From an uncultured Acidobacteriota bacterium (GTDB lineage: Bacteria > Acidobacteriota > HRBIN11): DNA of 46,189 bases. The DNA is taken from assembly GCA_964541595.1 (NCBI GenBank), contig CAZIRO010000001.1, forward strand, positions 1 to 46,189, given 5' to 3'. The position numbers were made by a program, and so were the translations under genes. Below the pieces are notes generated by a model that saw only the letters and a program-made list of their open reading frames with translations, ran no database searches and had not been told where the DNA came from. Shown here in pieces: positions 1 through 35,149 of the stretch (within the stretch, counting starts at the first letter, position 1; each line of letters begins with the position of its first letter).

Positions 1-2
1 AA

Positions 3-2843
3 CGTCCGCCGAATGGGAAAGGTTTTGCACTAAAACATTGCCCTCTGCGTGAGAACCACCGGCACGGGGATCGCAATCCTTCTTTGTCGGTGCTATATAA
101 GGATGACCAGATTGTTGCCGTGCGGTGTTTCGCGGGATGCGATCGTGACGAGGTTCGGAAGGCGTTGGGGTTAGAGAAAAAATGCAGAAAAAAATTTACG
201 ACCGAGATTGCCCAACAGTCGGTTCCCACAGACCCTGTTTCCTGGATTGCTTTCTACTGCGATCTCGATCCGGCCTGGGTGGCCAGGGAAGCAATCGAAT
301 ATGGCCTCCAACTCATTGAAGATGAAAATGTGCCAGCGGTCGCCTTCACATGGCACGGTGTTGATGCCCGCAAAATCCGTCGGTGGCCTAAAAACTTTCG
401 ATGGGAAGGCTCTTTGCGTCCAGCGGTCTGGCCGCATCCTGAGGTTATTCGCGCAAGATTCCCCGACCACGATTGGCTTGTGATCACCGAAGGCGAATTT
501 GACACCTTAATTTTGCTTTATATGGGTGTGCCCGCAATCAGTACCACCAAGGGCGCTAACAGTAGCGTTTCGGGTCTCGGCTTGGAATTGAAACGCCTGG
601 GATTTAATAGGACTTTGATCGTTCCAGACAATGACGACGCTGGGCGTCGGTTTGCGAAACAAGCGGCAAAAGCGTTACAGGGCGAAAATTTAAAAGTTGT
701 AGTCGGCGACGTATGCCAACTGGGTCTTGGAAGTGCTATCACCGGGGAGAACGATCTCAGAGACGTTTGGATTGGACGTACAGACGTCGATGAGGATGAT
801 ATCCACCTGGCCTGTATTAGCGCGTTAAATGAGAGTGAGGAAAGCGCCGAAGACGTTGAAGTCGTTGATCTTGCTGACCTGCTGAAACAACCATCTACGC
901 CTATTCAGTGGTTGTTTAAAGATTTACTGCCCCTGGGCGGTTGCTACCTCCTCTTTGGACGGGCGAAGTCCGGGAAGTCATTCCTCACCCTCGACCTTCT
1001 TGAGTCTTTCCTGACAGGTTCCGCTGCCCTGGGCGTCTTTCCCAAGAAAGCAAACGGTCGAATGCTTATGCTGCCGCTCGAGGATGGCACAGAGAGGTTC
1101 AAGCGCCGCGTTCACGCCAGAAACCTGAATGTTGAAAGTGGTAAAGTATTGGTGCGCTTCGTGCCTCCGCAAGATATATTGCATTTCATTGAAACGACAG
1201 TTCACCGCTTCCCGGATATCAAATGCATCGTTATTGACACGCTCCCTGCGTTAATGCGGGAAGTCAAGTCTCTAAGGGACGTCTTCCAGCAGGACTATGA
1301 TCGCCTAAAAGGTCTGAACGACATGGCGCAGCGGTTGAGCATCACTATATTAATTATTGCTCACAAAAGGAAATCTTCCGCCGCTGATCCAGCGGATGAG
1401 ATCGCTGGTTCGGGGGGACTTCTGGCTGCGGTCGATGGGATTCTCATTCTCGACAGGAAGCGCGGGGAGGATTTTGCCGTACTGCACCGCTACATTCGGG
1501 ATGCAAAAGATGCGAAATTCGGCCTTCTTTTTAGGAGTCTCAAATGGCGATGTATTGGAGATGACGAAGTGGTTAAGAGCGAATACACAAAAGACAAAGT
1601 TGTGCGGATACTGATCAGGGAGGCGCCAGATGCCCTAACGCCCGATAATATTTTCAAAGAGTTGCGCAATGAAGGGGTAAAAATATCAGAGCGCCAATTG
1701 TATCGAGTCCTGAAAGACTTGGTTGATGAAGGGCGCATCGAAAGGCCCAAAAAAGGCCTTTACAGAATTAAGATAGAAATCCCCGGACCTGGCGGTGATG
1801 ACGATGACAATGACGGTGGCGGTGACGGCAGCGGGGGTACCCACGAGAACCCGGAAAATGATGGCCAAGATGTCAGTTTCGTACACCGGGATCACATTTC
1901 TTCTTACGTAGATAAGGACCTCCGTAGTGACGTAGAAACTGACATCACCCCCCCTAAAAAGGTGACATCGGCACTGACATCGGAAAACCGGGAAATGTCA
2001 GTTTCTGAGTTTTGCTTACGGGGATGGGAAACTCCGGGCAACTCTAAACTGACATCACCGCAAAAAGCAAGCACTGATGCGGAACAACGGGGTAGTGTCA
2101 CCGCGAACTCCCGCATCAGTACTGAAAAAGTTGGAGAAAGTGACATTTCCCAGAATTCCATGTCACCTTCGACGTCAGTACGAATGTCAGTTCGAATGTC
2201 AGTTCGAAATTCCTCATCAGGTAAGGAAAAAACTGTTGTTACTGACATTCTGACATCAAACGACGGGGACGACGATCCGGAATACGATCGAAATCGTAAA
2301 GGCGGACGGATAATCAGATTCCGGAACAATGCCACCATCGGTCCGGATGGTGAGGTGGTACCCATTGACCCACCCGATGACCTATCGGATCAGGCCCGGT
2401 CCGATCCGGACGTTCAACCGGAACCACCAGACCCCGAACCAACCGAACCCCGGTCCGAAAGTTGTCCGAGATGCGGAAGCGTTAACACGCGGAAATTCGG
2501 TCGTAGCAGGGGCAAGCAAAGATACCAGTGTCGAGACTGCAAACGCACGTGGACGTCAACACGTACTGATCAACACGGATCAACACACGCGGATCAACAC
2601 ACGTGTGTTGATCCCCCGAATGATCAACACGCGGGGATCAACACCAACGATCAACACACGGGGATCAACACCGATCAACACAAGGTCGATCAACACGACG
2701 ACGGTCTGTGTGATAACTTGAAACGCTCTACCCCGGACGGTCGCTGTCCGGAGTGTGGTCATCTGGTCGAGTCCTTTTTCGGTACATCAATGGTCGTGTG
2801 TAGAAACTGTGGCTGGGTGGGGGTTGCCAATAAAAAACCGTGA
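3..2843 (+). CDS. Primase/helicase-type replicase (CHC2 Zn finger - Toprim - RepA-like P-loop NTPase - wHTH - long low-complexity tail with two Zn ribbons), 5' partial
   Basis: The frame is open from base 3. RPPNGKGFALKHCPLRENHRHGDRNPSLSV...VRCFAGC is a CHC2-type primase zinc finger that starts upstream of the TTG at 84, so the gene is cut by the window edge. Toprim motifs are ITEGEFD and VPDNDDAGRRF. P-loop motifs are GRAKSGKSF (Walker A), CIVIDTL (Walker B-like) and LIIAHKRK. The wHTH reads ERQLYRVLKDLVDEGRIERPKKGLYRI. The C-terminal ~350 aa are acidic and repetitive, with ribbons CPRCG..QRYQCRDCKRTW (IS1 InsA-like) and CPECG..CRNCG. Confidence 0.85.
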   Translation, partial: RPPNGKGFALKHCPLRENHRHGDRNPSLSVLYKDDQIVAVRCFAGCDRDEVRKALGLEKKCRKKFTTEIAQQSVPTDPVSWIAFYCDLDPAWVAREAIEYGLQLIEDENVPAVAFTWHGVDARKIRRWPKNFRWEGSLRPAVWPHPEVIRARFPDHDWLVITEGEFDTLILLYMGVPAISTTKGANSSVSGLGLELKRLGFNRTLIVPDNDDAGRRFAKQAAKALQGENLKVVVGDVCQLGLGSAITGENDLRDVWIGRTDVDEDDIHLACISALNESEESAEDVEVVDLADLLKQPSTPIQWLFKDLLPLGGCYLLFGRAKSGKSFLTLDLLESFLTGSAALGVFPKKANGRMLMLPLEDGTERFKRRVHARNLNVESGKVLVRFVPPQDILHFIETTVHRFPDIKCIVIDTLPALMREVKSLRDVFQQDYDRLKGLNDMAQRLSITILIIAHKRKSSAADPADEIAGSGGLLAAVDGILILDRKRGEDFAVLHRYIRDAKDAKFGLLFRSLKWRCIGDDEVVKSEYTKDKVVRILIREAPDALTPDNIFKELRNEGVKISERQLYRVLKDLVDEGRIERPKKGLYRIKIEIPGPGGDDDDNDGGGDGSGGTHENPENDGQDVSFVHRDHISSYVDKDLRSDVETDITPPKKVTSALTSENREMSVSEFCLRGWETPGNSKLTSPQKASTDAEQRGSVTANSRISTEKVGESDISQNSMSPSTSVRMSVRMSVRNSSSGKEKTVVTDILTSNDGDDDPEYDRNRKGGRIIRFRNNATIGPDGEVVPIDPPDDLSDQARSDPDVQPEPPDPEPTEPRSESCPRCGSVNTRKFGRSRGKQRYQCRDCKRTWTSTRTDQHGSTHADQHTCVDPPNDQHAGINTNDQHTGINTDQHKVDQHDDGLCDNLKRSTPDGRCPECGHLVESFFGTSMVVCRNCGWVGVANKKP
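1870..2256. repeat. Iteron-like cluster of ~13 TGACAT / ATGTCA(GT) octamers in both orientations, embedded in the replicase ORF
   Basis: ACTGACAT starts at 1938, 1973, 2048 and 2241; TCTGACAT at 2249; GTGACAT at 1962 and 2140. The inverse ATGTCAGT starts at 1870, 1995, 2184 and 2196; ATGTCAC at 2160; ACGTCAGT at 2172. Confidence 0.8.
2552..2696. repeat. Array of GATCAACAC nonamers (9 direct, 1 inverted, 1 degenerate) embedded in the replicase ORF between its two Zn ribbons
   Basis: GATCAACAC starts at 2568, 2578, 2592, 2622, 2636, 2649, 2663, 2673 and 2688. Inverted GTGTTGATC is at 2605-2613 and degenerate GTCAACAC at 2555-2562. Spacing is 10-30 nt (mostly 10-15). Every unit carries a GATC. 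Confidence 0.85.
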
Positions 2844-2856
2844 TGGAGGTCGGACC

Positions 2857-3162
2857 ATGCCCAGATTGAGAACTTTTAGCACTTCCTGTCGAAAACTGGG
2901 TATAGATTGCCCCGCCGGTCAGGCGAGATTGCTGGCGCAGTTAGTAACAGAAAAACCCATCGGAACAAACTTGTTGTGCGGTTTTTGCGGACAACCGATA
3001 GGGTGGCGGTGGATTGATGCGGATGGTGAAAGGCTGACGATAGCGTGTCCGTTCTGTGAGTTAATCGTTTCCGGATACTTTTTCGTTCTGACGAGGTATG
3101 TGGCTGCATCAAAATCGGTAGAAAACTGGCTAAAAAGAACGGTGAAAGGCGACCAACCATGA
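2857..3162 (+). CDS. Small Zn-ribbon protein (101 aa), island ORFan
   Basis: ATG at 2857 is preceded by GGAGGT (2845-2850), 6 nt upstream. CGFCG...CPFC is a CxxC-x19-CxxC motif. Its stop overlaps the next start (ATGA at 3159-3162). Confidence 0.6.
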   Translation: MPRLRTFSTSCRKLGIDCPAGQARLLAQLVTEKPIGTNLLCGFCGQPIGWRWIDADGERLTIACPFCELIVSGYFFVLTRYVAASKSVENWLKRTVKGDQP

Positions 3163-3593
3163 AACCCAGAGGACCTACTTTCATGGATTTGTTCCAAAAA
3201 ATATTTGACATGCAGGATTCACCCAGGTGGATGAATGCATCCAGACTGCTACTGAATCTTGTTATCCGGAGTTTTCTCGTGTCTGCTGCGGATGAATTGT
3301 TCCGATGTTACTGTCCAGTATGTCCCAAACGGTTACACCGCACGATGGTGATTCGGGAAATCTCCATCCGCAGGATGGCAGTTACGCTGGAATGTGTGAC
3401 CTGCGGAACAAGGATTAATTTGCAGGCGTATTATCTGGTTCATATGCCATTGACCGAGACCAGTGTGTCGGCTATCGAAAAATGGTTGTTAACCTTCCGT
3501 GATAAGTACTACATTGCACTGCAGAAACAATTCAGTCAACTTCAGGATTTAGAAACTGATGATGGAATAAAATCTCTGATGATGGAGGGATGA
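3159..3593 (+). CDS. Small Zn-ribbon protein (144 aa), island ORFan
   Basis: CPVC...CVTC ribbon. ATGA overlaps link it to both neighbours (3159-3162 and 3590-3593). AT-rich codon usage is typical of the island. Confidence 0.6.
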   Translation: MKPRGPTFMDLFQKIFDMQDSPRWMNASRLLLNLVIRSFLVSAADELFRCYCPVCPKRLHRTMVIREISIRRMAVTLECVTCGTRINLQAYYLVHMPLTETSVSAIEKWLLTFRDKYYIALQKQFSQLQDLETDDGIKSLMMEG

Positions 3594-3943
3594 CGATGGC
3601 GGTAAAAGAAACCCACAATGTGATTTGTGATCACGTCCCGCAACTGCTGAATCAGGTTGGGGACATCGTGACCAGAATTAACACCCGGTTGCAGGGGATG
3701 GAGATTGCTCCACTTCACAAACTCCCTTCCAGTCTCAAGATCATCGTAATGTGGAACTACCGCACCGGCGGACTTGGGATTCGGGTGGCGGATAGAAGTG
3801 AACCCGTCAGCGTACGTCTCGTTCCGGACGTTGTGGCGATTTCCCTGACGCGAAAGGAACTCGATGGTCGTGACCCAGCCGTGGTGGTGAAAGAGAAACT
3901 CCGCCGAGCACTGGAGGGGATATGCCGGGTGGAGACGTTTTGA
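3590..3943 (+). CDS. Hypothetical protein (117 aa), island ORFan
   Basis: ATGA overlap with the upstream gene. An alternative ATG at 3596 lies 6 nt after GGAGGG. A hairpin terminator follows. Confidence 0.55.
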   Translation: MTMAVKETHNVICDHVPQLLNQVGDIVTRINTRLQGMEIAPLHKLPSSLKIIVMWNYRTGGLGIRVADRSEPVSVRLVPDVVAISLTRKELDGRDPAVVVKEKLRRALEGICRVETF

Positions 3944-3953
3944 GTCCGTAAAC

Positions 3954-3996
3954 GGGGAACATCATCACGGTGGTGTTCCCCATGTATCCATATTTT
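3954..3996 (+). terminator. Candidate intrinsic terminator of the island operon
   Basis: GGGGAACA (3954-3961) pairs with TGTTCCCC (3974-3981) around a 12-nt loop. It is followed by CATGTATCCATATTTTAG. Confidence 0.5.
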
Positions 3997-4078
3997 AGTT
4001 GAAATTTCGTTGCACTGGTTGTAATTTATAACCGTCCGGATCCATCGCAGGAAGCCCACTAACGGACAGAACGAACGG

Positions 4079-4120
4079 GTGAAGGGTCAGGGTACGTACC
4101 CCCTGACCTTCACCTTTTCC
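4079..4120 (+). terminator. Second hairpin plus T-run (tandem terminator, or 3' end of a short transcript)
   Basis: GTGAAGG-G-TCAGGG / CCCTGA-CCTTCAC forms a ~13-bp stem with one bulge and a TACGTAC loop. It is followed by CTTTTCC. Confidence 0.4.
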
Positions 4121-5169
4121 CGCTGTCAAAAATCCCCAAAATCCCGCTGAAATCCCGGCAAAAACACCGATAACCCCCTGCGGATACCCGTTAACGTCTG
4201 GTAAAATCACCGGAAACCGGGTAATCCCCGGCGTAACGGGTTATCGGTTTCCGCCGTGTGGGTCCATACCCATATAGGATATCTGTACTTCTACCCGATG
4301 TACCGGAAATCCGCTTCTATCTTAGTGATTCATGAAAGTGGAATTCCCTGGCGTAATAGGTGGATAAAATAAATGGTACCAGTTCCCTGTTCCCATCATG
4401 TTATCATACACCAAAAAGTGGTCATTTTATGAGACATACCGAATGCACCGAAATCCTTCATTATTCCGTGTGTTCCTGCCGTGTGGAATCAGTGTTGTTT
4501 GGATAAAACGGGTCGGTTTATGAGACGCCGGGGGATTCAGTATGGGATAGCGAATAGAAATGCTTTTTTACTAAAGAATTAGTTGTATCGAAACCGTTTA
4601 CCGGGGATGGCTGTTTAAAACTTTCCGGATGTTCAAAATTTGTGGACTGCACGGTATAAGGGGGGTACCAGCGCACGGGATGGTGATCCCGGTAGCCGGT
4701 ATGAAAATCTAAGGTTCCAGCGGCATACGGAAAGAAACTTCCGCAGGGTGGTGACGTGGAAAGTAGACAACGGGTGACCGGATGGATAGGTGAATGGATA
4801 CATGGGGACACTACCGGTACATCACGATCCGGATGTATCCCTTCCCCGGTACTTACCATCCGGACACCACCATCCGGACACCCGTGGTCCGGTCACTGTG
4901 TCATCGAAAACGTGCACAGAGAGCGCGTCAGAGAGCGTTTCAGGGTTCCGGATGGGTAAAGATACGTTTTTGTCCGGAACCCGTTCCGTGGGCGCGTGTT
5001 ATGCAACGTTTTGTCCGGAAACCAGTCTAAAGTACGAAAACAAACGCGCACAACGGATCTGACGACAGATAGGATACGGGGATAGGACCATCACCGGGTA
5101 TATCTCGTAGTGATAAATGGAAGAATCCTCCTAAGCCATATGTGCTACATCAACTGTACGGTTGTCTCG

Positions 5170-5529
5170 TTACTTCTTCTCTTTACTCTGAGTTTCAATT
5201 AATCGTTGGATAAACGCACGCGTCACATCTTCACTCTCATAGTTACGAATTACCTGAAGATCTGCACCGCAAAACCGACACCGGATTGCTTCCGCACGGA
5301 TCAGTTCCGCACAATAGGGACATTTCTTCATCGTCCCGGAACGAATTGCCTGAAGTTCTTTTGCCTCTTTTGTCGCTGGTGTTAAGAGAGCAGCCAGAAA
5401 TCCTAAAGGACCAAAGAGTAGGCCGATCACAAACCACGCACCGTACTCCCTCCCCTTTTCACGAGCGATATTCGCTGAAAGCCATCCAAAGAATAGACCC
5501 CCAAATAGAATACAGAGAAAGGCTTCCAT
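5170..5529 (-). CDS. Small membrane protein with C-terminal zinc ribbon (119 aa)
   Basis: Two N-terminal TM helices (FLCILFGGLFFGWL, WFVIGLLFGPLGFLAALL). The ribbon is CPYC..CRFC. SD GGAGAA lies ~7 nt upstream of the ATG at 5529. Confidence 0.7.
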   Translation of the reverse strand: MEAFLCILFGGLFFGWLSANIAREKGREYGAWFVIGLLFGPLGFLAALLTPATKEAKELQAIRSGTMKKCPYCAELIRAEAIRCRFCGADLQVIRNYESEDVTRAFIQRLIETQSKEKK

Positions 5530-5643
5530 GAATTTTCTCCTCTGTTAACAGAAAAACATACCAATCACCCAGAATACTGTCAAGCGAATTTCGGTTTACA
5601 CCCATATGGAACCCACACAGAAACACACATCACCCGTATCCAA

Positions 5644-5726
5644 CTCTGCCAATTCTGCCAAATTCCGGGTACATATCGCAGACATACGATAGACATTACT
5701 CTGCCAAGTCTGCCAAAATTTTCCGG
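5644..5726. repeat. Two ~25-nt direct repeats, each holding a doublet of TCTGCCAA, 55 nt apart
   Basis: CTCTGCCAATTCTGCCAAATTCCGG is at 5644-5668 and CTCTGCCAAGTCTGCCAAAATTTTCCGG at 5699-5726. TCTGCCAA starts at 5645, 5654, 5700 and 5709. Confidence 0.6.
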
Positions 5727-5831
5727 TTTTAGAGACAGAATTATCCAATTATCACATTTTAGTTTGAGTTGATTACCACATTTGAATGCATGGAATTGCG
5801 TGATTTGACGCAGGTTTCTGGTGGGTTGCGG

Positions 5832-5908
5832 TGGTGCGCCTGGGGGGACTCGAACCCCCGACCCCGAGATTAGGAATCTCGTGCTCTATCCTGCTGAGCT
5901 ACAGGCGC
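5832..5908 (-). tRNA. tRNA-Arg (anticodon CCT)
   Basis: The reverse complement folds as a canonical cloverleaf. Acceptor stem GCGCCTG/CAGGCGC; D stem GCTC/GAGC; anticodon stem CGAGA/TCTCG with loop TTCCTAA; T stem GGGGG/CCCCC with loop TTCGAGT. CCA is encoded. Confidence 0.95.
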
Positions 5909-5961: not shown

Positions 5962-6507
5962 CTACTCATCCTCCCGGAACGTGATGACCGAATACACCGG
6001 CGCGACGGTCAAACGATGCCGTCCGTTCAGATCCACCAGTTCGATCAAAAACAAAAACGCAGTCACTTTCGCACCCGCACGCTGCACCAGTTCGGCAGCG
6101 GCCAGCGCCGTTCCGCCCGTGGCCAGGAGATCGTCCACGATGAGGACCTTCTGACCTGGGTCCAGTGCATCCTTATGCATCTCCAGGACGGCACTGCCGT
6201 ATTCCAGAGAATACGTCGTTTCGATCGTGTCCGCGGGCAGTTTGCCCTTCTTGCGCACGATGACGAGACCCGCTCCCTTTCGGTATGCGATCACGGCACC
6301 GAAAATGTATCCACGCGCTTCCACCGCCAGCACATGGTCAAAATCCAGTTCAGCCACCCTCGCCCACATCGCCTCCACGGCCTGACGGAACGCGGCACCG
6401 TCTTTCAGCAGGGTCGTGATATCGCGAAACCGAATGCCCTGCACCGGAAAATCCGGAATCGTCCGGATATAGCGTTTCAATTCTTCAGCAACGGTTTCCG
6501 TCTGCAT
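5962..6507 (-). CDS. apt: Adenine phosphoribosyltransferase
   Basis: IPDFPVQGIRFRDITTLL and the PRPP-binding loop VLIVDDLLATGGTA. The start is set at the internal ATG (6505-6507) because the upstream 67 codons overlap rpmE and have no APRT-like sequence. Confidence 0.93.
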   Translation of the reverse strand: MQTETVAEELKRYIRTIPDFPVQGIRFRDITTLLKDGAAFRQAVEAMWARVAELDFDHVLAVEARGYIFGAVIAYRKGAGLVIVRKKGKLPADTIETTYSLEYGSAVLEMHKDALDPGQKVLIVDDLLATGGTALAAAELVQRAGAKVTAFLFLIELVDLNGRHRLTVAPVYSVITFREDE

Positions 6508-20714: not shown

Positions 20715-20891
20715 ATCAGGACGGGAAATGGGACACCGTGGGTCCCCATGCGGTCATGCGCTATCCCCAGCCCATGCGATGCCCCGTCTCCTGTCTTCCG
20801 TCTCCCGTCCCGGACACCCGGGACCTGACACCTGGGACCCGACACCCGATGTCGACCGGTCCATTCGATATCCCACTTCATGTCCCCGATC
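20715..20891. repeat. MITE-like intergenic element, copy B (degenerate termini)
   Basis: ATCAGGACGGGAAATGGGACA is at 20715-20735. Over the 58 nt from GAAATGGGACACC to CCATGCGATGC the core differs from copy C (28278-28335) at one position. A GGACCTGACACCTGGGACCCGACACC heptamer segment follows. The right end TCCCACTTCATGTCCCCGATC (20871-20891) is a degenerate inverted terminus. Confidence 0.65.
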
Positions 20892-25788: not shown

Positions 25789-25800
25789 GGATCACTCCAC

Positions 25801-26089
25801 AGGTGTCCGGTCCCAGGTGGCAGGTGTCGGGTCTCAGGTGGCAGGTCTCAGGTGTCAGGTCTCGTGTGTCCGGTGTTGAGTGCCCGGGCTCTGGTGGAGC
25901 GTTAACCGGTCATTCAACAGGTCATACCATGCCATGGATCGGGCTACGACCATTGGCAAGCACGGTCCTCCGGATGGTCGCAATTTGTCGCCCCCTACAA
26001 GGACCTGAGACCTGAGACCTGAGACCTGACACCTGGGACCTGCCACCTGAGACCTGCCACCTGAGACCCGACACCTGCCACCTGCCACC
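25801..26089. repeat. Giant inverted repeat built from heptanucleotide tandem arrays (AGGTNNC x11 / NACCTGN x12.5) around a ~125-nt spacer; fills the thrS-ftsY intergenic region
   Basis: The left arm (25801-25877) reads AGGTGTC CGGTCCC AGGTGGC AGGTGTC GGGTCTC AGGTGGC AGGTCTC AGGTGTC AGGTCTC... The right arm (26002-26089) reads GACCTGA x4 CACCTGG GACCTGC CACCTGA GACCTGC CACCTGA GACCCGA CACCTGC CACCTGC. GGCAGGTGTCGGGTCTCAGGTGGCAGGTCTCAGGTG is perfectly complementary between arms (36 nt). Confidence 0.85.
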
Positions 26090-28042
26090 TTACTGCACAT
26101 CCCACAGTTCCAGACGCCGATGCGTCACGAGATCACGAAAATGCGCAATGAGTTCATCCACCGATCGGGCACCCTGGTCCCCGATTCCGCGTACCCGTAC
26201 GGCAACCGTGTTGGACTGGACTTCCCGATCGCCGACCACCAGAATGAACGGTACCTTGAGCAGTTCCGCATCGCGAATCTTCGCGGAAACACGTTCATTG
26301 CGCAGATCGGCCTCGACCCGGAACCCTGCCGTAAACAGTTGCTGCCGGACCCGTTCCACATACTCCGCATGGCGATCGGCGATGGGAATAATGCGGATCT
26401 GGATCGGCGCGATCCAGAACGGAAACGCGCCCGCAAAGTGTTCGATGAGCACACCCATAAACCGTTCCACGGAACCGAAAATCGCCCGGTGAATCATTGT
26501 TACCCGATGAAACCGCCCGTCGCGTCCGACGTACTGGAGGTCAAACCGTTCCGGAAGATTGAAATCCACCTGGATGGTGGAACACTGCCACCATCGGCCG
26601 ATCGCGTCCCGGATTTTGAGATCGATCTTGGGACCGTAAAACACACCCTCGCCGGGATCGATCTCGTAGGGAATCCCCGCACGTTCCAGTGCGTTGCGCA
26701 GTGCCGCTTCGGCGATATCCCACATCTCGAGCGTTCCGACGAATTTTTCCGGTCGGGTCGACAGATATACGCTGTACTCATAAAACCCGAACGTCTGCAG
26801 GACATCACGCACGAAATCCAGCACCCCGAGGATCTCGTCCTCGATCTGGTCCTGCGTGCAGAAAATGTGAGAATCGTCCTGCGTAAACCCCCGAACCCGC
26901 AGCAACCCGTGCAGAACGCCCGACCGCTCGTACCGGTATACGGTACCGAACTCGAACAGCCGCATCGGCAGTTCGCGATAACTCCGGCGATGCGCCCTGT
27001 AGATCACGATATGAAACGGACAGTTCATCGGTTTCAGCTGGTACCGGGCCTTTTCCTGAAGTTCCATCGGGGGAAACATGTTTTCGCGGTAAAACTCCAG
27101 ATGGCCGCTCACCTGCCAGTGTTCAATGCGGGCGATATGCGGCGTGTACACAAACTGGTATCCCCGCCGGAAGTGTTCCGCATAGAGAAACTCCTCCAGT
27201 TGACGTCGGACGATTGCGCCGCGCGGGTGCCAGAGGATCAAACCGGGACCGATGGACTCCTGAATGGAAAACAGATCGAGTTCCCGTCCGAGTTTGCGAT
27301 GGTCCCGTCGCTGTGCTTCCTCCAGTTGATGTAAAAACGCTGCCAGCCGCGACTGCGTGGGGAAACAGGTACCATAAATGCGCTGTAACTGGGGATTCCG
27401 TTCATCCCCGCGCCAGTATGCACCGGACGTGGACAGCAGTTTGAACGCTTTCAGGTATCCCGTGGACGGGACATGCGGTCCCTTACAGAAATCGAGAAAC
27501 TCCGCCTGTTCGTAGCAACTTACCGGGTCGCCGCCTCGCTCCAGAATGAGTTCCACTTTAAACCGCTCGCCGCGCGATTCGAAATAACGCAGTGCCTGGT
27601 CCCGCGGCAGCCATCGATGCACGATCGGAATGTCCCGCTCGGCGAGTTCGCGCATGCGCTGTTCGATCTTCTGCAGGTCCTCCTCCGTAAACGGACGATC
27701 CCGCAGGAAATCATAGTAAAATCCCGTTTCAATGGGCGGACCGATCGCGAGTTTGGTCTCCGGATACAGCTGCTGCACCGCCTGCGCCAGCAGGTGCGCA
27801 CAACTGTGTCGATAAACTTCGAGTGCTTTCGGATGGTCCGGTGTGATGAGTTCATCTACCCGCAGGTCACGGTCCACACGTCGATGATGGTCCCAGTACT
27901 CTTCACCGGCACGCAGAAGGATGATCTCACGCGACCGTTCCGGATCGTACCTGCGCAGGACTTCCGCAATTTCCGTACCGGCGTCGACCTCGATCACGCG
28001 ACCATCCGGAAACTCCACCCGCACGGTGGACGCTGTACCCAT
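26090..28042 (-). CDS. thrS: Threonine--tRNA ligase
   Basis: N-terminal TGS domain, editing-domain HSCAHLL, class II core (FRRGYQFVYTPHI, RVRGFTQDDSHIF) and a C-terminal anticodon-binding domain. Confidence 0.96.
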   Translation of the reverse strand: MGTASTVRVEFPDGRVIEVDAGTEIAEVLRRYDPERSREIILLRAGEEYWDHHRRVDRDLRVDELITPDHPKALEVYRHSCAHLLAQAVQQLYPETKLAIGPPIETGFYYDFLRDRPFTEEDLQKIEQRMRELAERDIPIVHRWLPRDQALRYFESRGERFKVELILERGGDPVSCYEQAEFLDFCKGPHVPSTGYLKAFKLLSTSGAYWRGDERNPQLQRIYGTCFPTQSRLAAFLHQLEEAQRRDHRKLGRELDLFSIQESIGPGLILWHPRGAIVRRQLEEFLYAEHFRRGYQFVYTPHIARIEHWQVSGHLEFYRENMFPPMELQEKARYQLKPMNCPFHIVIYRAHRRSYRELPMRLFEFGTVYRYERSGVLHGLLRVRGFTQDDSHIFCTQDQIEDEILGVLDFVRDVLQTFGFYEYSVYLSTRPEKFVGTLEMWDIAEAALRNALERAGIPYEIDPGEGVFYGPKIDLKIRDAIGRWWQCSTIQVDFNLPERFDLQYVGRDGRFHRVTMIHRAIFGSVERFMGVLIEHFAGAFPFWIAPIQIRIIPIADRHAEYVERVRQQLFTAGFRVEADLRNERVSAKIRDAELLKVPFILVVGDREVQSNTVAVRVRGIGDQGARSVDELIAHFRDLVTHRRLELWDVQ

Positions 28043-28121: not shown

Positions 28122-28256
28122 GATCTGGTCTCAGGTCCCGGGTGTCGGGTGTCAGGGATTGGGGGGCCATTTCCCGGATGCAGGGACGTGGTCCGGGCAC
28201 AGCGCCGCCGTGCCCCTACACCCCGCCACCTGGAACCTGCCACCCGGGACCAGATC
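28122..28256. repeat. Smaller heptamer-array hairpin element
   Basis: GATCTGGTC (28122-28130) pairs with GACCAGATC (28248-28256), and GTCCCGGGTG (28135-28144) with CACCCGGGAC (28241-28250). GGTCTCA GGTCCCG GGTGTCG GGTGTCA opposes CACCTGG AACCTGC CACCCGG. Confidence 0.6.
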
Positions 28257-28265
28257 CCCCCCTTA

Positions 28266-28392
28266 GGATCGGGACAGGAAATGGGACACCGTGGGTACCC
28301 ATGCGGTCATGCGCTATCCCCAGCCCATGCGATGCTGGTCTTTCTAAGACCCGAACACCTGAGACCCGAGACCTGACACCTGATACCTGATC
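28266..28392. repeat. MITE-like intergenic element, copy C (left terminus, core and heptamer tail; no right terminus)
   Basis: ATCGGGACAGGAAATGGGACA is at 28268-28288. The core is nearly identical to copy B. The tail reads AGACCCGAACACCTGAGACCCGAGACCTGACACCTGATACCTGATC. Confidence 0.7.
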
Positions 28393-34231: not shown

Positions 34232-35149
34232 TCAGAAACGGTGGATGGTGTCCAGGAGATACCGATGATACCAGTCTCGTGCCGGTGGAAATCCCGTGCG
34301 TCCGGATGCCCGGGTGGTCAACGATTCGTCTTCCGCGTCGTCATCGTCGTCACCACCACCCTTGCACTCCTTCCCGGACCACTTGTCGCCGTGACACCTG
34401 TAACAGGACGGTTCCCCGTTCGGTCCGCCCCGCAAGTCCGCACCATGACACGGGGCACAGTCACGCTGGGGTTTACACCAGTCCTGCGCATGCGCCACAT
34501 TGTCTTCAATCTTGTTATGCTGCGTCTTCCCGCAGTTCATCCACTTCCGTTGATCGTGACACTGCAAACAGGACGGTTCCCCGTTCACACCGCCGCGCAG
34601 GTCGTCCCCATGACAACGGCCGCAGTTCTCATACGGCGAGCAGTACCCGGAAGCATGCATCGCGCCACCGAGATTCACATCGTGGGATGCATTCTGTCCG
34701 CAGGTGTTCCACAGGGCGCCGTGACACTGGAAACAGGACGGTTCCCCGTTCGCGCCACCTTTCAGATCCGCGCCGTGACAGGATGCACAGTTTTGCTGCG
34801 GGGAACAGTATCCGGCTGCATGCATCACGCCGTTGATGTTGACATCGTGGACCGCATTCTGTCCGCAGGTGTTCCATAGAGCGCCGTGACACTGCAAACA
34901 GGACGGTTCCCCGTTCGCGCCACCTTTCAGATCCGTACCATGGCAGGCCGCACAGTTCGCCTGGGGTTGACAGTACCCCTGCGCGTGATTAAACCCGCCG
35001 ATAACCACATCGTGCGGTGTCGGTTGTGCGCGGCCGGTCCCACCGGTACCGGCCTGCATCGGGTTGTCGACCTGAAAACACCCGACAAGCGTGATCAACC
35101 CGAACCCGCAACACATCCCCACAACGATCCACCGCAACATGCGTACCAT
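34232..35149 (-). CDS. Octahaem c-type cytochrome lipoprotein (4 x 54-aa dihaem tandem repeats)
   Basis: Lipobox LITLVG-C. There are 8 CxxCH motifs. The repeat unit is H.....G..HA.GYC.P..NC..CHG.DL.GG.NGEPSC.QCHG. SD GGAGAGGG lies upstream of the ATG at 35149. Confidence 0.88.
   Translation of the reverse strand: MVRMLRWIVVGMCCGFGLITLVGCFQVDNPMQAGTGGTGRAQPTPHDVVIGGFNHAQGYCQPQANCAACHGTDLKGGANGEPSCLQCHGALWNTCGQNAVHDVNINGVMHAAGYCSPQQNCASCHGADLKGGANGEPSCFQCHGALWNTCGQNASHDVNLGGAMHASGYCSPYENCGRCHGDDLRGGVNGEPSCLQCHDQRKWMNCGKTQHNKIEDNVAHAQDWCKPQRDCAPCHGADLRGGPNGEPSCYRCHGDKWSGKECKGGGDDDDDAEDESLTTRASGRTGFPPARDWYHRYLLDTIHRF

Follow-up and report, generated by a model that had tools for sequence, protein, structure and literature searches.

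We describe here an array of short DNA repeats that lies inside a replicase gene and is translated with it. The repeats, copies of the nonamer GATCAACAC, occur near the left end of a 46,189-nucleotide (nt) stretch of DNA from an uncultured Acidobacteriota bacterium (contig CAZIRO010000001.1, positions 1 to 46,189; this whole stretch is called the window). The gene encodes a primase-helicase and holds two repeat clusters, array A with TGACAT cores and, farther downstream, array B with the nonamer. Array B is real and highly non-random. On balance, we favor the reading that it consists of cis-acting protein-binding sites (iterons) in the DNA from which a small mobile replicon starts or controls its replication. 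This replicon lies by a tRNA-Arg gene and is probably integrated there, and the primase-helicase would be its initiator. Most likely, array B would then be the distal second array, an auxiliary initiator-binding or copy-control site. The features of the gene are the following:

3..2843, + strand: open reading frame (ORF) of the primase-helicase (replicase), 946 codons, 5' end cut by the contig end (ORF and domain searches)
1593..1772, + strand: winged-helix DNA-binding domain (weak Pfam AbiEi_4 match at amino acids (aa) 560-589; family matches reach about aa 590)
1868..2257, seven cores on the + and five on the - strand: array A, 12 TGACAT cores with the consensus gaaaC-TGACAT-y (motif count and 8-mer cluster scan)
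2463..2540, + strand: zinc ribbon 1, CPRC-x18-CRDC, InsA/Dof-like (sub-threshold Pfam matches to Zn_ribbon_Dof, Zn_ribbon_PaaD and Zn_ribbon_InsA)
2555..2696, no strand assigned: array B, nine direct and one inverted exact copy of GATCAACAC and one degenerate copy (exact search)
2591..2614, no strand assigned: perfect 24-nt palindrome GGATCAACACAC/GTGTGTTGATCC, formed by the third direct copy and the inverted copy, head to head
2745..2810, + strand: zinc ribbon 2, CPEC-x14-CRNC, at the replicase C-terminus (weak Zn_ribbon_3 match; predicted local distance difference test (pLDDT) score 59-75)

Anatomy of the nonamer array

An exact search for GATCAACAC over the whole window returned 10 copies, every one of them inside 2568-2696, whereas dinucleotide-preserving shuffles contain 0.58 copies on average and at most 3. 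The nine direct copies are on the + strand and start at 2568, 2578, 2592, 2622, 2636, 2649, 2663, 2673 and 2688, and the single inverted copy is found at 2605-2613, giving start-to-start spacings of 10, 14, 13, 17, 14, 13, 14, 10 and 15 nt. The degenerate copy, TCAACAC, matches 7 of 9 positions and lies at 2555-2561. When one mismatch was allowed, the extra matches were scattered background only, and in an unbiased scan array B is the densest 8-mer cluster of the entire 46-kb window. Tandem Repeats Finder (TRF) assigns to it a 27-nt super-period with 83% matches, and the 24-nt palindrome at 2591-2614 is the main hairpin in a single-strand fold of the region. Each unit contains one GATC; the 10 sites in 2552-2700, all within 129 nt, stand against 0.4 expected by base composition. 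The array begins about 800 nt past the winged helix, its copies being placed 147-275 nt ahead of the replicase stop codon, and it has a G+C content (GC) of 0.50-0.55 with an orientation of 9 direct to 1 inverted. The original prediction, made from the sequence, had claimed an array of this composition with ten GATC sites in about 130 bp, bracketed by the two zinc ribbons of the replicase and translated as a DQH/GINT repeat. Exact search and shuffle enrichment bear out the array, the GATC sites were recovered at the claimed density, the ribbons lie on either side of it (CPRC...CRDC at 2463-2540, CPEC...CRNC at 2745-2810), and within ORF 3-2843 DQH is read six times and GINT twice. A lone near-copy of the unit plus flanks is located at 356-371, 2.2 kb upstream of array B in the primase-coding part (CGGTGTTGATGCCCG, 14/15 complementary to CGGGGATCAACACCG); it may be due to chance.

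The constraint on array B is at the DNA level, and the encoded peptide (DQH/GINT) would be incidental. The ten cores do not differ at any position, and the information content drops from about 2 bits inside the 9-mer to about 0.5 bit right at its edges; the spacers between the copies vary in length and in sequence. Six copies are read in frame 0, one in frame 1 and two in frame 2, to which the inverted copy adds, and the resulting peptides are DQH (six), GINT (two), GST (one) and, from the inverted copy, CVDP (one). All six in-frame DQH are coded GAT-CAA-CAC, which has a probability of 8.5e-5 under the gene's own codon usage (elsewhere in the gene GAT/GAC 42:40, CAA/CAG 12:10 and CAC/CAT 12:4). 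A coding tandem repeat keeps to one frame and varies synonymously, whereas array B uses three frames plus an inverted copy with zero synonymous variation. We place the constraint on the DNA because the cores are identical, three frames and an inverted copy are used and the synonymous codons are frozen, and we regard the peptide as a by-product because the segment of the ORF that holds the repeats encodes no more than a linker, predicted to be disordered. In a single-sequence AlphaFold model the segments coded by arrays A and B have pLDDT values below 50 and are predicted to be disordered, whereas the winged helix and both ribbons are modeled as folded (pLDDT 64-89 for the three together). This is weak evidence, yet consistent with a translated linker.

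A second, unrelated array in the same gene

The TGACAT/ATGTCA cores of array A number 12 compared with 0.09 expected (Poisson P about 1e-21). TGACAT and GATCAACAC have no sequence in common, and the two clusters are separated by about 300 nt within the gene, in agreement with the earlier claim of a second, distinct TGACAT family 300 nt upstream. Array A starts about 100 nt past the winged helix and overlaps the part of the tail with the highest A+T content (2120-2270, GC 0.38-0.45). By comparison with related sequences it occupies the position that is typical for origin repeats in this family. Because of this place after the winged helix and the overlap with the A+T-richest stretch, array A is likely the core origin, and it would probably be bound by the winged helix.

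The polypeptide that carries these arrays is composed of a CHC2-like Zn finger, a Toprim domain (aa 159-237), an AAA_25 domain (aa 290-459), the winged helix (about aa 531-590) and a C-terminal tail. The tail is about 350 aa long and comprises both arrays and both ribbons in the order array A, ribbon 1, array B, ribbon 2. The AAA_25 match identifies a RecA/DnaB-like helicase domain (2.4e-20; Walker A at aa 319), and the PHROG DNA primase/helicase family matches with 1.6e-26. The winged helix is the last domain common to the family and is modeled by AlphaFold2 (AF2) as helices with pLDDT 64-80; zinc ribbon 1 is modeled as beta strands with pLDDT 80-89. In a PDB sequence search the N-terminal 600 aa had no match, and the tail gave generic zinc-ribbon similarity only.

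Repeat arrays at the 3' end of related genes

The replicase is nearly an orphan in word-indexed protein searches. A HMMER pass over 1.84 billion representatives, however, recovered 14,219 relatives at E <= 1e-3. Most of them end about 47 residues after the winged helix (median tail 47 aa). In many others the tail is long and contains tripeptides repeated perfectly, frequently in two different types and frequently with a zinc ribbon at the end, such as VNSVNSVNS plus VYGVYGVY, SHPSHPSHP, or GNRGNRGNR followed by the ribbon. In 80 viral-contig loci encoding relatives, the densest 8-mer cluster per locus was sought without prior assumption. A cluster of at least four copies was present in 53 loci, and in 47 of these the top cluster fell between -700 and +500 nt relative to the stop codon of the primase-helicase gene, compared with 8.8 expected under uniform placement; with at least six copies, the cluster was at the 3' end of the gene in 31 of 33 loci. 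These 31 clusters lie wholly downstream of the stop codon (14), across it (13) or wholly inside the ORF (4), and the repeat copies of the relatives occur in both orientations and in all frames. Some of their cores resemble array A (CGGTGACA, CTGTGACA, AGTGACAT) and others array B (ATCAATAC, ATCAACGA, GCGCAACA); most are devoid of GATC. On the basis of this survey, and as judged from the sequences of the relatives, genes of this primase-helicase family as a rule have a repeat array at their 3' end or within it, and the point at which coding gives way to non-coding DNA shifts freely along the array. The original prediction of iteron families inside the replicase gene is supported. The winged helix was also compared with that of relatives whose repeats are TGACA-like or ATCAAxAC-like; the similarity did not suffice to assign a specificity.

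The nonamer itself was encountered elsewhere. A group of unrelated viral contigs (L240, L242, L259, L241, L235, L233 and L270; GC about 0.62) contains six exact GATCAACAC copies in about 80 nt. On L240 this cluster is found at 6011-6090. It is flanked on one side by a Prim-Pol/VapE-like primase-helicase gene and a 259-aa ORF and on the other by small genes and a terminase-like gene, and it could be the origin or a packaging site of those phages. Scans with a paired-GATCAACAC pattern returned many loci, for the most part simple tandem repeats or pairs expected by chance; about 20 have at least four copies, 0 of them beside a relative of this replicase.

A recurring design of small replicons

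The closest clade consists of P0009, which is 36% identical to the window protein, and its relatives. Its members are found on small contigs (4-6.6 kb replicons) together with a serine recombinase, and one member is encoded in an Armatimonadota metagenome-assembled genome between two tyrosine integrases. One contig (L106, 1-6714) is a 6.57-kb circle according to its 141-nt terminal overlap, and another (L110, 1-7848) contains a 4,172-nt unit of replicase, 127-aa ORF and serine recombinase that was assembled as 1.9 tandem copies; these two are among the smallest primase-helicase replicons known to us. The order in this clade is winged helix, translated tail with repeats in both orientations and conserved C-terminal zinc ribbon. 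L104, for example, has ATTCCGTTCCCG (4 direct and 3 inverted), L105 and L106 have pairs of CGGTGATGAGAAATG, and L108 has AGTACGGAA about 4-5 times; in L107 the repeats in the tail are supplemented by a distinct array of 11-nt tandem units, 475 nt beyond the stop codon.

A family member is also found on pATHE01/pBAL, the native 8.3-kb circular plasmid of Caldicellulosiruptor bescii (PMC3082886, PMC3643907). A search of plasmid records identified its 719-aa 'AAA family ATPase' with E = 1e-19 over aa 300-592, and this protein is arranged as winged helix, SIHSIHSIHSIHSIHSIHS and, farther on, a zinc ribbon. In the plasmid DNA, seven tandem ATTCACTCT units (SIHSIHSIH...) are followed by further direct and inverted copies and then by the Zn ribbon, all within the ORF. 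Thus, helicase, winged helix, 9-nt repeats that are translated and run in both directions, and a C-terminal zinc ribbon are shared with the window, but pATHE01 has only one repeat family, in a strict 9-nt tandem register, and one ribbon. No mapped origin of pATHE01 was found in the accessible literature. Because the closest clade and pATHE01 have an equivalent order, the layout of the window is, at the level of sequence comparison, a recurring design of small autonomous replicons.

Comparison with known origins

In Staphylococcus aureus pathogenicity islands (SaPI), the Rep protein is a helicase that loads itself. The winged helix at its C-terminus binds 6-12 iterons, which follow directly 3' of rep and point both ways about an A+T-rich center (PMC9371898). 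The Pri-Rep systems of SaPI and other phage-inducible chromosomal islands, with the fused PriRep5 in SaPI5, share with the window that the helicase is the initiator (a putative one in the window), that helicase and C-terminal winged helix are in one chain, that at least 6 short repeats cluster at the 3' end of the gene and that the element is integrated in the chromosome (probably so in the window). The ATPases differ, being AAA+ superfamily 3 (SF3) or MCM in SaPI Reps and a RecA-type AAA_25 (RepA/DnaB-like) fused to a Toprim primase in the window. Furthermore, SaPI iterons are non-coding, whereas in the window both arrays are fully translated, are followed by zinc ribbons and belong to two unrelated motif families. 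Concerning the orientation around an A+T-rich stretch, array A has a ratio of 7:5 and overlaps GC 0.38-0.45, and array B has 9:1 at GC 0.50-0.55. Since the ATPase is AAA_25, with no match to SF3 helicases in Pfam or PHROG and hence no homology to SaPI Reps of this type, the window replicase may by analogy work like a SaPI Rep without being a member of that group.

Translated origin repeats have precedents. The lambda ori lies inside gene O, the SPP1 oriL in gene 38 and the repABC oriV in repC, in each case with repeats in the region coding for an inter-domain linker of the initiator by which they are bound. Lambda O, with its ori in the gene, thus demonstrates that origin repeats can be translated. 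As in lambda O, the putative origin repeats of the window lie inside the coding sequence of the putative initiator and encode an inter-domain linker, the ORF being open through both arrays and continuing in frame into zinc ribbons. The initiators of lambda, SPP1 and repABC plasmids are, however, not helicases or primases but recruit the host machinery, and they use one iteron family of 18-19 bp compared with two of 6-9 bp in the window. Pfam and PHROG gave no match of the replicase to lambda O or replisome organizers. The abstract of PMC3155836 deals with the replication origin of a repABC plasmid. The alpha protein of phage P4 is similar to the window replicase in uniting primase, helicase and a C-terminal winged-helix origin binder in one polypeptide, and P4 likewise has two repeat clusters, which it needs in cis. 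In P4, ori and crr share one octamer iteron, are kilobases apart and lie outside the alpha gene, and the helicase is of the SF3 type. The two arrays of the window had originally been compared with this bipartite ori/crr organization; the analogy fails because P4 reuses one iteron, whereas the motifs TGACAT and GATCAACAC are unrelated and their clusters lie within one gene, at a distance of about 300 nt.

The element beside the tRNA gene

GC is about 0.50 over positions 1 to about 5830 and 0.55-0.62 in the rest of the window, the higher-GC remainder carrying the housekeeping genes apt, pheT, ribBA, thrS and a pyrophosphatase gene. At the transition lies the following feature:

5832..5908, - strand: tRNA-Arg(CCT), 3' end abutting the lower-GC segment (GC about 0.50, compared with about 0.58-0.60 in the host)

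This tRNA was the sole match in an Rfam scan. Its 3' end is the probable right-hand border of the element. Because the GC border coincides with the 3' end of tRNA-Arg, the replicase is assigned to a mobile element, seemingly integrated beside the tRNA gene. Promoter and terminator scans remained at chance level.

Proposed function and its weight

If array B has the function that we favor, the C-terminal DNA-binding modules of the replicase would bind the repeats, in analogy with self-loading initiator-helicases such as SaPI Rep. Helicase rings would assemble there and open nearby A+T-richer DNA, presumably near 2120-2270, and the fused Toprim primase would then prime synthesis. The zinc ribbons on either side of array B may, speculatively, be the modules that read it. 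A more far-reaching version, which we consider a long shot, has two origin-recognition modules, the winged helix reading array A and the ribbon pair reading array B, the DNA that codes for their own linker. Each protein molecule would in that case arise next to the site that it binds and work in cis by preference. More generally, thousands of Toprim/AAA_25 primase-helicases might conceal their origins in the translated tails, in which a drifting number of repeats or a shifted stop codon would do the protein no harm.

Several points weigh against the assignment of array B to origin or control function. The evidence is wholly computational, and for no member of this replicase family was a mapped origin found in the literature. 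By position it is array A, not array B, that fits the family norm, and array B could serve another function; with its single inverted copy and without A+T-richness it is also unlike classical origins. The left part of the element lies beyond the contig start, and no independent copy of the element was obtained: word-indexed protein searches returned distant relatives only, genome contigs distant Toprim matches only and a protein scan of metagenome contigs nothing. The contigs found by exact-protein look-up were 100% identical pieces of the same assembly data. The comparison of unit number and spacing among related elements, suggested with the original prediction, was therefore made at the level of the family. 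The role of array B, as opposed to array A, in origin or control is therefore put forward with less certainty than the anatomy, the constraint on the DNA and the comparative pattern.

If the origin reading is correct, it points to the likely origin of a widespread, uncharacterized primase-helicase replicon family with the 14,219 representative matches given above, spanning small metagenomic replicons, phage-like contigs and the native plasmid of a biotechnologically used thermophile. The low-complexity peptide repeats in these tails would be translated DNA-binding sites and not protein features. Origins would become predictable from protein sequence alone, an aid for annotation and for vector design in little-studied phyla, and the system would help to understand the co-evolution of initiator specificity and origin where both share one stretch of DNA.

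Alternative explanations

The strongest rival, although in our estimate rather unlikely, is that array B is bound by another protein of the element, for example a small downstream Zn-ribbon protein, and serves not initiation but partition, in the manner of a centromere, or else packaging or the control of transcription. Short repeats in arrays indeed make up plasmid centromeres, among them parC and the sites of the omega protein, and the unrelated motifs of arrays A and B suggest two different readers. The separate tandem array beyond the stop codon in L107 fits this explanation as well, and so does the L240/L242 phage group, where the six GATCAACAC copies lie between replication and terminase modules, a place in which packaging sites also occur. 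However, the visible element (1-5831; its left part is outside the contig) contains no ParA/ParB-type, ParM/ParR-type or terminase gene, and array B sits inside the replicase ORF, in the very zone where the family keeps its repeats. We hold it to be improbable that array B is chiefly a cluster of GATC sites, at which Dam-type methylation and sequestration of hemimethylated sites would time or license initiation, as in E. coli oriC or P1 oriR. The high local GATC density, with ten sites in 129 nt and one per unit, is common to array B, E. coli oriC and the P1 oriR heptamers, and the host shows no avoidance of GATC (observed/expected 1.10 in a trinucleotide model), so no restriction pressure by a GATC-cutting enzyme is evident. 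Yet in oriC and P1 oriR it is GATC alone that is common, placed in A+T-rich unwinding repeats, whereas in array B the full 9-mer of 44% GC is invariant well beyond GATC, and the repeat cores of relatives mostly lack this tetramer. The 46-kb window has no ORF with a (D/N/S)PP(Y/F/W) methyltransferase motif, and the host GATC excess of 2.8 by base composition shrinks to 1.10 once trinucleotide usage is considered, codon-driven trinucleotides thus explaining the excess. A cyanobacterial HIP1 signal was likewise sought in the window, with no trace of it. We know of no SeqA-like function outside Gammaproteobacteria and of no Dam or SeqA for this host. Methylation could still modulate the site, with protein binding as its main role.

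That array B matters as protein, e.g. as a metal-binding His/Asp-rich DQH linker, or is a neutral product of recent replication slippage without cis function, seems quite improbable to us. Part of the array probably did grow by duplication of two-unit blocks, as the 27-nt super-period (83% in TRF) indicates, and six units read DQH. A selected peptide is, however, difficult to reconcile with three frames and an inverted copy that yield four different peptides, or with the frozen synonymous codons (P = 8.5e-5). Slippage, in turn, is unable to make an inverted copy or a 24-nt palindrome. It also speaks against this explanation that the cores are all perfect between diverged spacers and that equivalent arrays of relatives lie beyond the stop codon. 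Finally, many plasmid and phage origins carry DnaA boxes, and the units of array B might be weak DnaA-box-like sites that recruit host DnaA (nGATCAACA compared with TTATCCACA). This we judge to be very improbable: the resemblance is partial, was judged by eye and, at 6-7 of 9 positions, is easily reached by chance, and DnaA would be of no evident use to a replicase that brings along helicase and primase of its own. The resemblance was set aside as too weak. The reading of array B as iterons of a primase-helicase replicon remains the one that we prefer.

Neighboring genes and further observations

Downstream of the replicase gene, the element continues with small genes:

2857..3943, + strand: three genes of 101, 144 and 115-117 aa (ORFs; without database family)

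The first two of them (101 and 144 aa, 2857-3593) each encode CxxC...CxxC pairs, and replicase tail and neighbors together form a run of four zinc-ribbon modules without database family. Among the fetched relatives there were no homologs of the replicase tail or of the small downstream ORFs. The 144-aa protein is identical on a 3837-nt Joint Genome Institute (JGI) contig. The window contig ends inside the replicase gene, and ENA ERZ27262647, apparently the same data, breaks at 36 and at 3302-3322; judging from these assembly breaks, the sample may contain variant forms or several copies of the element.

A perfect 15-nt inverted repeat (TCCCCATGTATCCAT/ATGGATACATGGGGA) is present at 3977-3991 and 4794-4808. 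It brackets 832 nt without a long ORF, in a gene-poor stretch of 1.2 kb in the element, and a rough calculation gives about 0.02 chance matches in 6 kb. It may represent a small inserted element or a structured site.

The tetranucleotide CTAG is absent from the window (0 compared with about 147 expected in the host part, and 0 compared with 22.6 in the element, by base composition). AGCT is avoided even under a trinucleotide model, with 6 compared with 30 in the host and 0 compared with 7.4 in the element. This pattern suggests a restriction system or another pressure common to host and element, and as the element has the host's lack of CTAG and its avoidance of AGCT, we do not take it for a recent arrival.

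The host part also contains repeats of other types. Intergenic arrays of 7-nt tandem repeats are located at 25800-26090, 28139-28390 and 20783-20849, with the units GACCTGA/ACCTGAC (up to about 12 copies), CAGGTGT (about 11), AGACCCG and GACACCC. Such arrays flank thrS (26090-28042) on both sides and are also found near other genes. A 165-nt tandem repeat at 34555-35014, with 2.4-2.8 copies of 76-80% identity, overlaps a minus-strand ORF at 34232-35149 (305 aa).

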